DNA from: Methanomicrobiales archaeon | Lineage (GTDB): Archaea > Halobacteriota > Methanomicrobia > Methanomicrobiales > Methanospirillaceae | Reading direction: 5' to 3' | DNA: 64,000 nt | Assembly: GCA_037137755.1 (NCBI GenBank) | Contig: JBAXJR010000005.1 | Span: forward strand, 1 to 64,000 | Shown here: positions 7,473-21,641 of the stretch, piece after piece | Numbering within the stretch: the first letter of the stretch is position 1 | Layout of the letters: every line of letters begins with the position of its first letter | Notes under the pieces: generated by a model | What the model saw: the letters and a program-made list of their open reading frames with translations, nothing else | Database searches by the model: none | What the model was told of the DNA's origin: nothing | Translations under genes and position numbers: made by a program

Positions 7473-8825
7473 TCACCTTTTATCACTACTACTATTCCCG
7501 TCTATTTCACTTCCGGCACCCATGACATGCTGGAAAACAAGTTTGTAGTCATTAAGTTTCTGGCGGATGTGGGTTTTTCCAGTTTCCGTAGGGCAATATA
7601 ATTTGGATTTTCCTGACATCCTGATCTCGAGGTACCCGTTGTCCATCAGATCGTGGAGGAGCGTATAAACCCGTGCCTGCGGAATAAGCACCTTGTACCT
7701 GCTATGGATCTCATGGACGATATCATACCCGGAAATTGGTTTAGACAGAAAAGAAAGTACCACCGGTTCCAGCGACTTTTTTACAACATCATCGATGGTT
7801 GACTGGGGTACAACGGAGACCGATTCGGTAGGGAATGTATGCTGGGCAAACGAAAGCGTCGTTTCTTTCCCGGTTGAAACAATGATCTTGGGAATACCCG
7901 TTGCCAAGGATTTTATCAGGCTATGATCAATTTTTCCGATATTCAGGGCAAAGATCCCGGATATGGGAAAACCCTTCTCCTTTTTTGAAAGAAGTAATTT
8001 TTTGATGGCCAGGATATCATCAAACTCTTCAGTTTCAGAAAAATCGAGAAGTATTTGCAGGGACGTCATCTGGTCTCCGTACAACAGGGATTCCGTGCAC
8101 TTTTCAAGGACCTGCAACAGGGAAAATACTTCGTTTCTTTTTAACCGGTGAGTGAAAAGTTCCTTTTTCCGGATCTCATTTGGAAAGTACTTCTGGAGTG
8201 TCGAATGGAAATAGGCAAAAAGGTTTCGTCCTCCCTTTTTCAAACCCTCTTCCAGTGCAAATTTAAATATCGGTTCTTTCGTGACCTGGTCAGTGTACAG
8301 GAAGAGAACAATATCGGTGAAAATATCTTTTAACAGGACTGTTTTGATTTCCGGCAGATCGAGATAGGCCAGGCCATCAGGGACCGGTTGTCCTCCTCCA
8401 ATCCCATGGAAATCTTTTTCCCATGCTTTTTTTCGCAGCTCCTGTTCTTCCAGCTCTGTTGCCCGCCGGAACAATGCCACTTCAATGGCGGCTTTTATTT
8501 CCAGTTCATTGAAGGGTTTTACAATATAACCGTAAGGCCTGACATGTTTTGCCTTTTCAATGATCGTATCATCCGCGTATGACGTGACAAAAACAACCGG
8601 TATATTCAGTTCCCCGGTAATGATTGTTGCTGCTTCGATGCCATTCATCTTTCCCGGCATCACGATATCCATCAGCACAAGGTCAGGCTGGAGACGCCGG
8701 GCCATGTCAATAGCGTCTTCGCCGGAAGCTGCCATGCCCACAACGGTATATTCCATTATAGTTAACCGTTTTTCCAGCTGCATGGAAATGATCGCTTCAT
8801 CATCAACAACGAGTATTTTCGACAT
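7473..8825 (-). CDS. Response regulator: REC + MEDS/RecA-like central domain + C-terminal PadR-type winged helix
   Basis: REC (VVDDE, LMDIVMP, IVKP); central LFLY..ALEEGLKKG..LFAY segment; PadR-like KPISGYDI..VYTLLHDL..GYL..KLY..TETG. Confidence 0.85.
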   Translation of the reverse strand: MSKILVVDDEAIISMQLEKRLTIMEYTVVGMAASGEDAIDMARRLQPDLVLMDIVMPGKMNGIEAATIITGELNIPVVFVTSYADDTIIEKAKHVRPYGYIVKPFNELEIKAAIEVALFRRATELEEQELRKKAWEKDFHGIGGGQPVPDGLAYLDLPEIKTVLLKDIFTDIVLFLYTDQVTKEPIFKFALEEGLKKGGRNLFAYFHSTLQKYFPNEIRKKELFTHRLKRNEVFSLLQVLEKCTESLLYGDQMTSLQILLDFSETEEFDDILAIKKLLLSKKEKGFPISGIFALNIGKIDHSLIKSLATGIPKIIVSTGKETTLSFAQHTFPTESVSVVPQSTIDDVVKKSLEPVVLSFLSKPISGYDIVHEIHSRYKVLIPQARVYTLLHDLMDNGYLEIRMSGKSKLYCPTETGKTHIRQKLNDYKLVFQHVMGAGSEIDGNSSSDKR

Positions 8826-8829
8826 AAGG

Positions 8830-9879
8830 TTATGGCTCCGTTAGCATCACTGGGAAATCTATAGAGACTTCCGTACCATTCCGGCTCTTAAATAATACTG
8901 AGCCCTTCAACTGGTGCTGCACAATGGTCCTGATCAGCGTGACGCCGAGACTGTTTGAACGGCCGATATCAAAATTTTCCGGTAATCCGATTCCGTTATC
9001 ACGGATGGTTATGTTGATCCGGTCGTTCTCCCGCATTACGGTGATATCAATGGTACCGTTATTCCGCCCTTTGAACGCATGTTTATACGCGTTCGAGAGG
9101 ATTTCATTAATCACCAGTGCGCAGGGCAGGGCCTGGTCTACCGGCAGAAATACTTCCCCCGGGTTAATGGTGCAGCTGATTTCATCCCCTGAATGAGAGA
9201 AAACATTTGATAATGCGGTTACCTGGTCCCTGCACTGGTCTGTTATGTCGATTTTCCCCATCTGTTTACTTTCATAAAGCCGGGTATGGATTTGTGCCAT
9301 GGTCTGTATTTTAAGCATGATATCGGTCAGAATACTGTTTGTCGATTCATCCGGAGAACCCATCCGGGTCATATCCAGCAGGCCGGATATCAGCTGGAGA
9401 TTGTTCTTGACACGGTGGTGGATCTCGCGAAGCAACGTCTCTTTCTCGGAGACCAGTGCCGCAAGAGAGTCGCGATTTTCTATCAGTTCTTTTTCGATCC
9501 TGCCCCGTTCGATAGCATAGCGCAGGGAGCGGGCAATTGACGGCCCGTTCATCTGACCTTTGACAAGATAGTCCTGTGCACCCTCTTTGAGTGCCGTCAG
9601 ACCGGTTTCTTCATTGTCGAGCATGGTCAGAACCACGATCGGTACTGACCCTGCCTGATCCCGCGCCCGGCGTAGCGTGTCGAGTCCCTGGCTGTCGGGA
9701 AGCCCAAGGTCCAGGAGAATAATATCGAATTCCCTCTTCTCAAAGCACGGTTTTGCAGCCGATAACCGGTCTCTCCAGACAATATCAAAAGACGATCCTT
9801 TTTGATCGGACAACATTTCACGTATCAACTCCACATCGGCGGGATTGTCCTCGATCAAAAGAATCGTCACGAGCTGCAC
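8830..9879 (-). CDS. REC-HisKA_2 histidine kinase
   Basis: Receiver LLDLGLPD; H-box EIHHRVKNNLQ; NEILSNAYKHAF; DNGIG; SLG. Confidence 0.92.
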   Translation of the reverse strand: MQLVTILLIEDNPADVELIREMLSDQKGSSFDIVWRDRLSAAKPCFEKREFDIILLDLGLPDSQGLDTLRRARDQAGSVPIVVLTMLDNEETGLTALKEGAQDYLVKGQMNGPSIARSLRYAIERGRIEKELIENRDSLAALVSEKETLLREIHHRVKNNLQLISGLLDMTRMGSPDESTNSILTDIMLKIQTMAQIHTRLYESKQMGKIDITDQCRDQVTALSNVFSHSGDEISCTINPGEVFLPVDQALPCALVINEILSNAYKHAFKGRNNGTIDITVMRENDRINITIRDNGIGLPENFDIGRSNSLGVTLIRTIVQHQLKGSVLFKSRNGTEVSIDFPVMLTEP

Positions 9880-9880
9880 C

Positions 9881-10342
9881 TTACTTTTTCGACGGGAGTG
9901 TTACAACCGAGAACCAGAAGTTCTCAAGCGACCTCACAACCTCAACGAATTCCGTAAATTTTACGGGCTTTTTTATATAGCAGTTCGCATGGAGCCGGTA
10001 TGATTCAAGGATATCCTTGTCGTCCTTTGAGACCGTCATGATGACGACAGGGATATATTTCAGCTCACTATCCGCCTTGATCTCTGCAAGGACTTCACGC
10101 CCATCTTTTTTTGGCATATTAAGGTCGAGCAGGATGATATCCGGTGTCGGGGCCGAGGCGTACCGCCCTTTCTTGCGGAGATAATCCATCGCTTCCACGC
10201 CATCATGCACTACATTCAGGACGTTGCAGAGTTTATTATCCTGAAATGCCTCCTGGGTAAGAGCGACATCTGCAGGATTGTCATCGACCAGCAGGATTTC
10301 GACCGGTCGTAACCACTGTAATATCTTTTCATTTTCATTCAT
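9881..10342 (-). CDS. Stand-alone receiver protein (Rcp1-like)
   Basis: ILLVDDNPADV, PDIILLDLNMPKKDG, ANCYIKKP, FWFSVVTLP; start taken as the ATG after an AAGGAGG-like SD. Confidence 0.92.
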   Translation of the reverse strand: MNENEKILQWLRPVEILLVDDNPADVALTQEAFQDNKLCNVLNVVHDGVEAMDYLRKKGRYASAPTPDIILLDLNMPKKDGREVLAEIKADSELKYIPVVIMTVSKDDKDILESYRLHANCYIKKPVKFTEFVEVVRSLENFWFSVVTLPSKK

Positions 10343-20530: not shown

Positions 20531-20549
20531 CCAACGGAGGTGAAAGAAT

Positions 20550-20711
20550 ATGGATTTAATCTGGCTCGCGGTAGTATTCCTTATACTGGCACTCGTGTTC
20601 TACATTCTTGGTGCAAGAGGGATCGCCGGGTTCAGCATGGAAATAGCGAAGATCCTTGTAATTATCTTCATAATAATCGCGGTTATAACCTTCCTGTTTG
20701 GCCGCCTCTGA
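20550..20711 (+). CDS. DUF1328 / UPF0391 small membrane protein (missing from the ORF track)
   Basis: [63 protein letters not shown], 53 aa. Confidence 0.9.
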
Positions 20712-20730
20712 ACCTTTTTAAAAAGGTTCA
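20709..20730. terminator. Perfect 22-bp palindrome between convergent genes
   Basis: TGAACCTTTTTAAAAAGGTTCA gives a T5 run on both strands. Confidence 0.5.
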
Positions 20731-20819
20731 CTTGTGCAACCTAAAAACAACAGATAAAAAACAAGAGGGTTTTTTCCCACGCTATTGGGGGAACTGGAAC
20801 TCCTTCCTGTTTTTTACTT

Positions 20820-21641
20820 TCACAGTAACCTTGCCCCTGACTGGTAGGTCATAGCCTTGGTGAATGACTTTATGTACCCGTTTGCTGTGGATTTTTCTTC
20901 ACTAGAGAGATCAGACGCCTTCGTCAGGCTGCTGCCACTTCCACCCTGCAGATGCAGTTTCATGTACGCCTGGACAAGTCCGTAAGCCGGAATAGTCCCG
21001 CTTGCGGTATTAACCCCGTGAGCATTCATGCTGTAAGCTAATGCGACCGGTATGTCCTGGGATGCCACGACCGTCCGGCTGGATGCCTGCGACGAGAGAG
21101 AGATTATGTTGCTGTCCACGTGGCTTCCCGCCTGCGCAATGTTACAGTATGCAGGAAGTGTGCTTATGCTGGACGCCCCGAACGGACAGAGGAACTGTCC
21201 TGCAGCTGATGTTGGCATGCCGACGGTATCGATAAGCAGGCTCTCATCAGAGACCATGTTTCCACCGTTGAGACCCTCAAAGGTTATCTGACGGTTTGAT
21301 TCAACATTACTCTGTGAGACGGCCTTGTTCCCGGTATCGAGAGCGAAGTCCTTCACATACACGGTGTGCCCGTTCATCGCATTGGTATTTTCGGAGTATA
21401 CCGTGGTCTGGACTACTTCCCCGTCGGATAACGGGGGGTTGTCCTGCATTGAGCCGCTGCTGGAAGTCCATGCAACGTCTGCTACGTTACTCGCGGACCC
21501 GATGACATCGATATAGGTCGTCGTTCTGATACCCTGGATTTCGGGTGTCTGGTTCACGCCATCTGCCGATACACTGATGCTGAGCGTTGTAAGCACCAGG
21601 ACGACAGACAGAATACAAAGTATTCTTTTTCCGATTTTCAT
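20820..21641 (-). CDS. Secreted beta-rich protein, major sheath protein (MspA/SH)-like
   Basis: AGGAGG SD, signal peptide, DGVNQTPEIQG start, NPPL..GE, LDTGNK, FLCPF..LPAYCNI, F.K.M.YQSG.R end, as recalled for the Methanospirillum sheath family. Confidence 0.65.
   Translation of the reverse strand: MKIGKRILCILSVVLVLTTLSISVSADGVNQTPEIQGIRTTTYIDVIGSASNVADVAWTSSSGSMQDNPPLSDGEVVQTTVYSENTNAMNGHTVYVKDFALDTGNKAVSQSNVESNRQITFEGLNGGNMVSDESLLIDTVGMPTSAAGQFLCPFGASSISTLPAYCNIAQAGSHVDSNIISLSSQASSRTVVASQDIPVALAYSMNAHGVNTASGTIPAYGLVQAYMKLHLQGGSGSSLTKASDLSSEEKSTANGYIKSFTKAMTYQSGARLL

Follow-up and report, generated by a model that had tools for sequence, protein, structure and literature searches.

The systems described so far that lie closest to the one considered here come from bacteria and from other archaea. 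In Alphaproteobacteria the general stress response (GSR) comprises PhyK, PhyR, NepR and EcfG. The yqjD-yqjE-yqjK block of E. coli is taken as the DUF883 family's archetype, and production of YqjD, ElaB and YgaM is described as RpoS controlled; the same text describes DUF883 proteins as rare in archaea, Methanocalculus being the only case named (preprint 10.1101/2024.08.16.608256). This DUF883 trio has been linked to stationary phase and envelope stress (PMC11302039; 10.1101/2024.08.16.608256), its Pseudomonas counterpart responding to both (PMC11302039), and YtjA, a DUF1328 protein, is reported to be under sigma-S control in Salmonella (PMC5437024). PadR/MarR proteins are described as binding short palindromes, e.g. 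TGT-N8-ACA and TGT-N10-ACA (PMC7145548). In a census of archaeal two-component systems, helix-turn-helix response regulators are few in Methanomicrobia (20/697), an operator or regulon is given as known for almost no archaeal DNA-binding response regulator, and the term 'PadR' is absent from the main text (PMC5847659). Here, we report a promoter module shared by a gene island, and a candidate two-component regulator for it, in a window of 64,000 nucleotides (contig C5:1-64000) from a Methanomicrobiales archaeon whose genome (G000; 2.64 Mb, 106 contigs, GC 0.50) was compared with those of its relatives. Literature searches returned no description of this motif, of the cassette described below or of such a regulon in methanogens; an earlier note on the same DNA had likewise taken such rewiring of stress genes to be undescribed in methanogens.

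Judged by sequence comparison, stress-type genes do share one TATA promoter as a regulon-like set, which is larger than first seen and is conserved in relatives. The promoter is a module of about 60 bp with fixed geometry, consisting of a box CAnATTTTGMAAC, GG, TATATA and CTAyATG. A sequence-only model of it (R1; match threshold E <= 1e-3) and a position weight matrix (PWM) of its box, trained on the island promoters alone (training-site scores 20.0-25.3), gave the following sites in the window:

12768 to 12783, plus strand: orphan box in the divergent gap between operon and island, without the TATA part (PWM score 17.8).
12976 to 13037, plus strand: R1 promoter of the DUF883-like operon, with the box at 12979-12992, the TATA box at about 13003-13010 and a predicted start at about 13032 (E 9.5e-14).
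16958 to 17017, minus strand: R1 promoter of gene 16194-16829, with the box variant TTTTGGAA, divergent from the DUF3821 promoter; predicted start at about 16961 (E 6.3e-13).
17175 to 17234, plus strand: R1 promoter of the DUF3821 gene; predicted start at about 17231 (E 1.3e-13).
18428 to 18487, plus strand: R1 promoter of LEA1, followed by a leader of about 75 nt; predicted start at about 18484 (E 7.9e-14).
20189 to 20250, plus strand: R1 promoter of the LEA2-DUF1328 pair; predicted start at about 20245 (E 5.8e-15).

The earlier note had proposed that four island promoters share one motif. The motif is real, but the count is five, and the exact pattern given there catches only three of them (3 matches in the window versus 0.00 expected in 100 shuffles); the fourth site (20195) deviates in spacing, and the fifth, at 17011, is a minus-strand site that precedes 16194-16829. 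In the nearest-relative set of 41 genomes, the same pattern was too strict and matched only 2, but the R1 model matched 13. Over the whole genome there are seven strong copies of the module, the two outside the island standing ahead of a second LEA-DUF1328 pair (contig C12) and of a gene that joins a LEA N-terminus to a zinc ribbon (contig C2). This gene type, with a LEA2-like N-terminus, a CxxC...CxC zinc ribbon and a basic tail, is found at G000:C2:97390-97945 (minus) and in G006, G010, G012 and G025 (other G-numbers denoting relatives' genomes), and is R1-driven in five genomes. Two further box copies are too weak to count, one at G000:C44:8865 (minus) ahead of a rubrerythrin gene and one at G000:C11:35017, about 440 nt before the gene for an Mre11-like phosphoesterase.

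A gap-free alignment of twelve G000 and G005 promoters has 17 invariant columns. The blocks occupy columns 4-15 (CAnATTTTG-AA), 21-22 (GG), 28-35 (TATATA) and 44-50 (CTAyATG), and within the box the invariant columns form a dyad centred on T8 (C4/G12, A5/T11, A7/T9), which is how the site of a dimeric DNA-binding protein should look. Orthologous promoters of the two genomes are 75-82% identical in the module and 52-67% identical in the flanks; for the DUF883-like operon the values are 77% and 52%. In one G005 copy the LEA2 start codon occupies columns 57-59, 22 nt behind the TATA box, so that the TATA box there appears to be in use, the transcript would start at about column 57 and that mRNA would be leaderless. 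Numbered from the predicted start (+1), the box spans about -53 to -40, with GG at -36/-35, which is the position of the TFB recognition element (BRE), TATATA at -29 to -22 and CTAyATG at -13 to -7. By this geometry R1 is probably a working archaeal BRE/TATA promoter. In three public metatranscriptome runs, 7 contigs (173-229 nt) were identical to stretches of island genes; DNA carry-over is possible for them, and they gave neither start sites nor levels. An alternative TFB acting as a sigma-like selector was considered and rejected: each of the 41 genomes (41/41) has one TFB gene, the two TFB matches per genome being the two cyclin repeats of that gene, and thus an alternative TFB does not explain the module.

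The module is newly described as far as searched, and conserved among the genomes compared. In the nearest relatives it stands nearly always ahead of a gene starting MTDNLKVKA..., which has DUF1328 behind it or a zinc ribbon fused to it. In an order-wide sample of 151 genomes, R1 was found in nine, all from two Methanomicrobiales families, and in 0/101 genomes of four other families. Orthologues of the response regulator encoded beside the island (7473-8825; receiver, middle domain and PadR winged helix, hereafter REC-PadR) were found in 20 of the 151, likewise from these two families. The regulator gene is present in 7/9 R1 genomes versus 13/142 others (Fisher p 7.7e-6, and 0.015 within the two families, both values being inflated by relatedness of the genomes). 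The island gene cluster recurs in G005 with full synteny, and in G020, G025 and G125; in G020, a decayed LEA/DUF1328 pair stands beside the kinase-regulator cassette.

A second line of evidence connects the box with the regulator gene. In 183 kb of relatives' regulator loci the box matrix gave 6 matches, all less than 1 kb from the kinase-regulator pair and equal to 4 independent sites (p about 4e-4). The box as a 14-mer with at most one mismatch has 4-13 copies per genome versus 0-1 for the reversed control. In five further genomes it gave 37 matches versus 1 for the reversed control across the same five, and for 20 of these 37 a REC-PadR gene is no more than 10 kb away (p 3e-28). Moreover, it lies 57-740 nt behind the REC-PadR gene in 4/5 other regulator-bearing genomes. 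A match common to G004, G007 and G012 was set aside as a coding coincidence inside a conserved 481-aa open reading frame (ORF), which we take to be RtcB-like.

Behind the regulator gene the box is part of a conserved promoter on the same strand, 36-165 nt past the stop codon, in which it is followed by a TGAAA half-site 12 nt on, CCGG and TATCTATAT. This promoter, which we call Hsp20-type, aligns gap-free across both families. A sequence-only model of it (R2), trained on 15 loci, found it on the same strand within 400 nt of the regulator stop in 23/34 loci and 21/25 genomes, 8 of the 23 loci being outside the training set; the best-kept and most symmetric box copies are those directly behind the REC-PadR gene in these 21/25 genomes. 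The next gene is an Hsp20-like ORF of about 90-105 aa with an alpha-crystallin-like signature in 15/30 loci by eye and in 11/34 by a strict regular expression; with Pfam HSP20, one such ORF scored exactly at the cut-off and another had no match. R1 and the Hsp20-type promoter both have the box and CCGG-TATA, and R1 is without the second half-site, so that in both promoters a TGMAAC half-site ends just before the BRE. The regulator-bearing genomes without the Hsp20-type promoter are G000, G005, G003 and G020. In G000, G005 and G020 the cassette stands beside R1-type promoters instead, and in G003 the contig ends too soon to tell. In four regulator-less genomes R2 found nothing convincing. In G125 the regulator and the island are on separate contigs, both with the box. 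The position of the box behind REC-PadR in most loci, together with its genome-wide clustering near this gene, indicates that regulator and box are evolutionarily coupled. The link of regulator to motif drawn in the earlier note is thus supported by way of the box 3' of REC-PadR in 23/34 loci, but not by way of synteny or co-occurrence, to which we return below.

Some Hsp20-type leaders carry, by eye, a hairpin GYGTGGG-N8-10-CCCACRC at about the expected transcript start (L056 7540-7570, L066, L065, L068 and L074, L-numbers denoting loci fetched from relatives), and in G164 the hairpin is GCGGG...CCCGC, changed on both sides. In addition, a perfect 15-bp box palindrome lies 40-50 nt before a 421-aa ORF in L082 (G025:C4; 6079-6092), in a genome without a REC-PadR gene. 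By eye, the GCAA and GAAA variants of the box could be set against regulator subtypes in only a few cases.

The regulator is the last gene of an operon of four minus-strand ORFs lying head to tail at 7473-12449. Pfam and the ORF reading agree with the earlier claim of such an operon, the middle part of REC-PadR being without a Pfam family. Its genes and the gene on its other flank are as follows:

10335 to 12449, minus strand: PAS-PAS-HisKA-HATPase sensor kinase, first gene of the operon (Pfam).
9881 to 10429, minus strand: single-domain receiver (Pfam Response_reg, 75.8 bits, residues 45-165).
8830 to 9879, minus strand: REC-HisKA_2-HATPase hybrid kinase, conserved partner of the regulator (Pfam HisKA_2 73.6 bits, cut-off 22.3; HATPase_c 47 bits).
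7473 to 8825, minus strand: REC-PadR response regulator of 450 aa, with a receiver, a middle domain and a PadR winged helix (Response_reg 85.4 bits, PadR 31.1 bits).
6479 to 7039, plus strand: msrA, convergent with the regulator gene (Pfam PMSR, 227 bits).

The PAS kinase has a 90% identical orthologue in G003, followed by the same receiver gene. The receiver ORF overlaps the kinase gene upstream, and hence its true start is probably later. The HisKA_2 kinase stands directly upstream of the regulator in 11/11 relatives' loci fetched first and in most of a second set of 20. msrA lies where the earlier note had placed it, on the other side of the operon, and none of the relatives' regulator loci examined contains an msrA gene; the adjacency is not conserved.

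In REC-PadR, the PadR domain (PF03551, residues 357-421) scores above its cut-off of 27, and the predicted structure has helices and a two-strand wing at residues 366-434. The receiver pocket D8, D9, D53, T81 and K103, including the phospho-acceptor Asp, is invariant in 12 orthologues. The middle domain, called MEDS-like before, gave no Pfam match at residues 130-350 with E <= 0.01, MEDS (PF14417) included. Its model (pLDDT 63, pTM 0.64) has FlaH, KaiC and RadA/RecA as nearest folds, all weak: the best is FlaH with E 2.9e-3 and TM 0.50, and FlaH, KaiC and RecA range from E 3e-3 to 2e-2 with TM 0.4-0.5. No glycine-rich P-loop was found at the expected place. With a weak KaiC-like fold and no P-loop, the domain is best called inactivated KaiC-like on the strength of this model, and 'MEDS-like' would apply only in that loose sense. 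REC-PadR has 707 homologues, one of which is named 'response regulator [Methanoregula sp.]'.

The gap between operon and island (12450-13112) was described as AT-rich and of about 660 bp, and measures 663 bp with GC 0.38 versus 0.50 for the genome. The genes beyond it are the following:

13113 to 13502, plus strand: DUF883-like (ElaB/YqjD-like) C-tail-anchored protein of 129 aa, named from sub-threshold family matches and homologue names.
13514 to 13882, plus strand: YqjE-like membrane protein (Phage_holin_3_6, E 4.3e-5, 24 bits, under the cut-off of 28.4).
13854 to 14264, plus strand: third gene of the trio, a membrane protein with no family match; orthologues adjacent in G005 and G125.
15457 to 15984, minus strand: conserved hypothetical membrane protein with 69-75% identical orthologues in the G005 and G025 islands, no Pfam match and no R1 promoter.
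16194 to 16829, minus strand: protein with a Lys/Glu-rich N-terminus, a transmembrane segment and an outer domain; orthologues in the islands of G005, G020, G025 and G125.
17256 to 18371, plus strand: DUF3821 surface protein (Pfam, 165.6 bits).
18560 to 18913, plus strand: small repeat protein 'LEA1', no family; the longest ORF runs from 18518, and the product is 38% identical to LEA2.
19196 to 19708, plus strand: intact conserved two-helix membrane protein of 170 aa, 82% identical to a G025 island gene (L055 9442-9951).
19790 to 20090, plus strand: C-terminal remnant of an AI-2E transporter gene, matching residues 188-328 of the intact one in a relative's island.
20318 to 20530, plus strand: small repeat protein 'LEA2' of 70 aa, counted from its conserved MTDNLK start (ORF 20282-20530).
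20550 to 20711, plus strand: DUF1328 (PF07043, YtjA-like) two-helix membrane protein (45.8 bits, cut-off 27, profile 1-39 of 39).

The claim of a DUF883 gene with two partners holds in part. The first protein scores below threshold against both PF19029 (DUF883_C; E 0.038, 14.1 bits, cut-off 27) and NCBIfam ElaB (E 0.068), and the N-terminal DUF883 domain (PF05957) was not found in it by searching up to E 10; the second partner is without a family. In support, many of the 230 homologues of the first protein are named ElaB/YqjD/DUF883 by JGI, several that are 64-71% identical contain PF19029, and its atlas neighbours at 0.90 are DUF883_C clusters. The product of the next gene is YqjE-like, itself below threshold. 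The surface proteins of the earlier description were found as the DUF3821 protein and two secreted paralogues (14515-15306 and 20820-21641) that are 40% identical to each other.

LEA1 and LEA2 are paralogues, Ala/Asp/Lys-rich and with repeated D-D-A-K-V/I-x-x-H units, and LEA1 has its probable start at the ATG behind the conserved leader (18560). Neither 18518-18913 nor 20282-20530 has a LEA family match in Pfam or NCBIfam, the likeness being one of composition, and all 19 homologues of LEA2 are annotated 'hypothetical'; the two are therefore not retained as LEA members. DUF1328 is intact and well above its cut-off, as had been said, and lies directly behind LEA2 in all relatives having both. 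A decayed second copy, proposed at 18928-19104, was not supported, since BLASTP against the intact copy gave E = 10. The AI-2E remnant was borne out by its match to the relative's intact transporter (E 4.8e-15, with a frame change). Gene 19196-19708 keeps its 82% identity across two families, well above other island genes (62-70%), which, from the sequences compared, points to strong constraint or transfer. Large ice-binding-like (PF11999) proteins adjoin the island or R1 promoters in two genera (L055 of G025, 2567-6380; L050 of G017, 131-2230).

According to our model, the island would consist of co-regulated small membrane and stress-type genes, each transcription unit being driven from one R1 copy: the DUF883-like/YqjE-like trio, the two Ala/Asp/Lys-rich repeat proteins, DUF1328, the Lys/Glu-rich membrane protein and the DUF3821 protein. 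The phosphorylated REC-KaiC-like-PadR protein would bind the box just upstream of the BRE and assist TBP/TFB in loading there. Its input would come from the conserved HisKA_2 kinase and, in G000, additionally from the upstream PAS kinase and receiver. The conserved unit would be a three-part cassette of HisKA_2 kinase, REC-KaiC-like-PadR and a box promoter with the Hsp20-like gene, so that the core target of the regulator lies next door and island genes may have been acquired in some lineages; G000 may have lost the core target, keeping the regulator beside five R1 promoters and the orphan box at 12768. A site just upstream of the BRE is the position of known archaeal activators, and by comparison with these the place of the box suggests activation. 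From sequence, REC-PadR (7473-8825) is the best candidate for a box-binding activator, a role for which we see about an even chance; binding, activation in preference to repression, the order of the phosphorelay and the stress signal are the parts of the model that we infer. Of the claim that a bacterial general-stress gene set had been rewired onto TATA promoters under REC-PadR, the shared-promoter set stands, but control by REC-PadR is a candidate reading and the bacterial set is, as we compare them, an analogy and not a membership. More broadly, two Methanomicrobiales families could have an equivalent of the bacterial general stress response that works without sigma factors, running from a PhyK-like HisKA_2 kinase to a PhyR-like receiver-KaiC-like-PadR protein and on to a dyad box at the BRE, with the Hsp20-like gene as core and grown in some lineages to include DUF883/YqjE, DUF1328, repeat and surface proteins. 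We put this forward tentatively, as a possible reading and not a probable one.

Several observations weigh against control by REC-PadR. Among the 41 relatives, regulator and R1 occur together in 5, the regulator only in 5, R1 only in 8 and neither in 23, so that the co-occurrence proposed earlier is not significant (Fisher p 0.15, and 0.60 within family). The REC-PadR gene is absent from 8/17 R1-bearing genomes (G004, G006, G007, G010, G012, G015, G023 and G025; completeness 73-98%). In G004, G007, G010, G012 and G025, a query of the middle domain plus PadR had no match and the PadR domain alone reached a best E of 0.034. The box of G004 and G007 is kept as well as that of G005 (R1 E 3e-11 and 1e-12) though LEA2 is as diverged (74-75%); something else must read the box there, or it works without a reader. 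Conversely, no LEA2 homologue was found with the query used in the regulator-bearing G001, G008, G009, G019 and G021. Linkage of phosphorelay and island, expected in the earlier note to be conserved, is rare: operon and island are syntenic in 1/11 of the relatives' regulator loci fetched first (that of the close relative G005), to which G020 adds its decayed pair. In G000 itself, neither the Hsp20-type promoter (R2 best E 0.011) nor its gene was found, the best tblastn match for the latter being a distant small heat-shock protein on another contig (E 3e-4). Moreover, PadR proteins are mostly repressors, and the box lacks the TGT/ACA half-sites of characterised PadR proteins. Of about 55 ORFs in the window, at least 15 encode kinases or receivers; with signalling genes this dense, adjacency of operon and island alone means little. 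The main obstacle is the eight R1 genomes without regulator, for which a second factor, or a promoter also working alone, would be a better fit.

The eight genomes that keep the box without REC-PadR would fit a reading in which a different transcription factor, present in every module-bearing genome, reads the box, and the kinase/REC-PadR/Hsp20-like cassette is a member or a frequent neighbour of its stress regulon. In G025, five genes of the island cluster are conserved (62-82% identity) without the cassette, the LEA2-DUF1328 pair stands alone in G004, G007 and G016, and box copies in regulator-bearing genomes form regional clusters of up to 17 kb, like a stress island under one factor. On the other side, no DNA-binding gene, and so no regulator gene, was seen conserved beside the LEA2 operons of G004, G016, G020 and G025. 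That the best box copies stand directly behind REC-PadR in 21/25 genomes is what is classically seen where a regulator has its target next door; no Hsp20-type promoter was found in the four regulator-less genomes, and sets of at least four strong R1 copies were seen only in the regulator-bearing G000, G005 and G125. We consider a different factor rather unlikely, and it is the first alternative to be kept in mind beside REC-PadR.

Alternatively, there may be no dedicated regulator, and a promoter-plus-leader cassette may have spread by duplication or transplantation, its blocks being read by TBP, TFB and RNA polymerase alone. LEA1, LEA2, the C12 copy and the C2 zinc-ribbon protein are indeed paralogues that share promoter, leader and N-terminus, and thus appear to have been copied together; moreover, the G016 LEA2 promoters keep the TATA and proximal blocks and not the box. 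However, the module also precedes non-homologous genes (DUF883-like, DUF3821 and 16194-16829), and the box is dyad-symmetric, better kept than the flanks across two families, is found again behind the regulator gene with other elements downstream of it, and occurs in only about 7 of G000's promoters. These points make a spread of the cassette with no regulator improbable.

A further alternative concerns the leader. A/U-rich and about 75 nt long, it follows R1 at 13032-13112, 18484-18559 and 20245-20317 of the window and at most relatives' LEA2 promoters, and CUCUG at its 5' end can form a stem with CAGRG just before the ribosome-binding site. Co-regulation acting mainly on RNA, with this stem controlling stability or translation and the DNA box secondary, would agree with the closing stem in the minimum-energy fold of 10/17 leaders (printed folds read by eye) and with cognate arms pairing better than non-cognate ones (-11.6 versus -9.7 kcal/mol, permutation p 0.002-0.006, over few sequences), but it is highly improbable because the DUF3821 and 16194-16829 promoters do not have this leader, one G005 LEA2 copy is leaderless, the stem leaves the ribosome-binding site free and no Rfam family matches the leader (best E 0.85 in 12400-21700).

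Other signalling genes of the window and of the relatives were also noted. At 33968-36431, a STAS protein (minus), a 5TMR-LYT-SpoIIE phosphatase and a HATPase_c_2 (RsbW/SpoIIAB-like) kinase make up a partner-switching set, here in an archaeon that has no sigma factor. In one relative, a HisKA_2 kinase lies beside RsbR/RsbS/RsbT-like stressosome genes: L050 (G017:C1:1546000-1565900) encodes, at 2841-10654 and 13674-14311, an RsbR-like protein (RsbRD_N+STAS), a STAS protein and a HATPase_c_2-SpoIIE protein, then a 1253-aa HATPase_c_2-PASx5-HisKA_2 kinase and a REC-PAS protein. Two divergent R1 promoters lie 3-4 kb away from this set and a REC-PadR gene about 19 kb away, and from its gene content the set looks like a stressosome-like input to a HisKA_2 kinase. 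Finally, a CheB-CheR-PAS fusion occurs at 55636-58614 of the window, and in G053 (L056 1697-4879) one lies directly upstream of the HisKA_2 kinase/REC-PadR pair.

Compared with the alphaproteobacterial GSR, the best NCBIfam model for the kinase 8830-9879 is PhyK and that for the regulator's receiver is PhyR, in the receiver part only, and, as we propose, a HisKA_2 kinase would feed a receiver that switches on small stress-type proteins. The scores differ greatly from those of true members (117.6 bits versus a cut-off of 750 for PhyK, and 92.6 versus 240 for PhyR), so that neither protein has an equivalog-level match. REC-PadR has no PhyR sigma-like output domain, and neither an anti-sigma nor a sigma factor is part of the system; its output is a PadR domain on BRE/TATA promoters. 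With yqjD-yqjE-yqjK of E. coli and PA3040-3042 of Pseudomonas aeruginosa, the trio has in common the order of a C-tail-anchored DUF883-like protein, a holin-like protein resembling YqjE and a third small membrane protein; it differs in a first gene that is sub-threshold and without the DUF883 N-domain, in a third gene with no family and in its archaeal promoter. Genomes with the promoter and without the regulator offer a natural experiment on regulon wiring and unwiring, and the regulator family with its 707 homologues, the 14-bp box and the two promoter architectures with predicted starts form a testable triplet.

RosR of Halobacterium salinarum is likewise an archaeal winged helix of PadR/MarR type with an oxidative-stress regulon reached through a short palindrome, TGT-N10-ACA, which is unlike the box (PMC7145548). 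It is a one-component factor, without receiver or KaiC-like domain, and belongs to another phylum and physiology. FilR1, LtrR and Bat, from Methanomicrobia and haloarchaea, share with REC-PadR the two-component type and a helix-turn-helix output. If binding is confirmed, a two-component stress regulon would be defined for the first time in hydrogenotrophic methanogens from peat and freshwater habitats, and the box would be a clear example of an activator site placed right against the BRE. From FilR1, LtrR and Bat the present system differs in domain families and in their order, which here is REC, then KaiC-like, then PadR.

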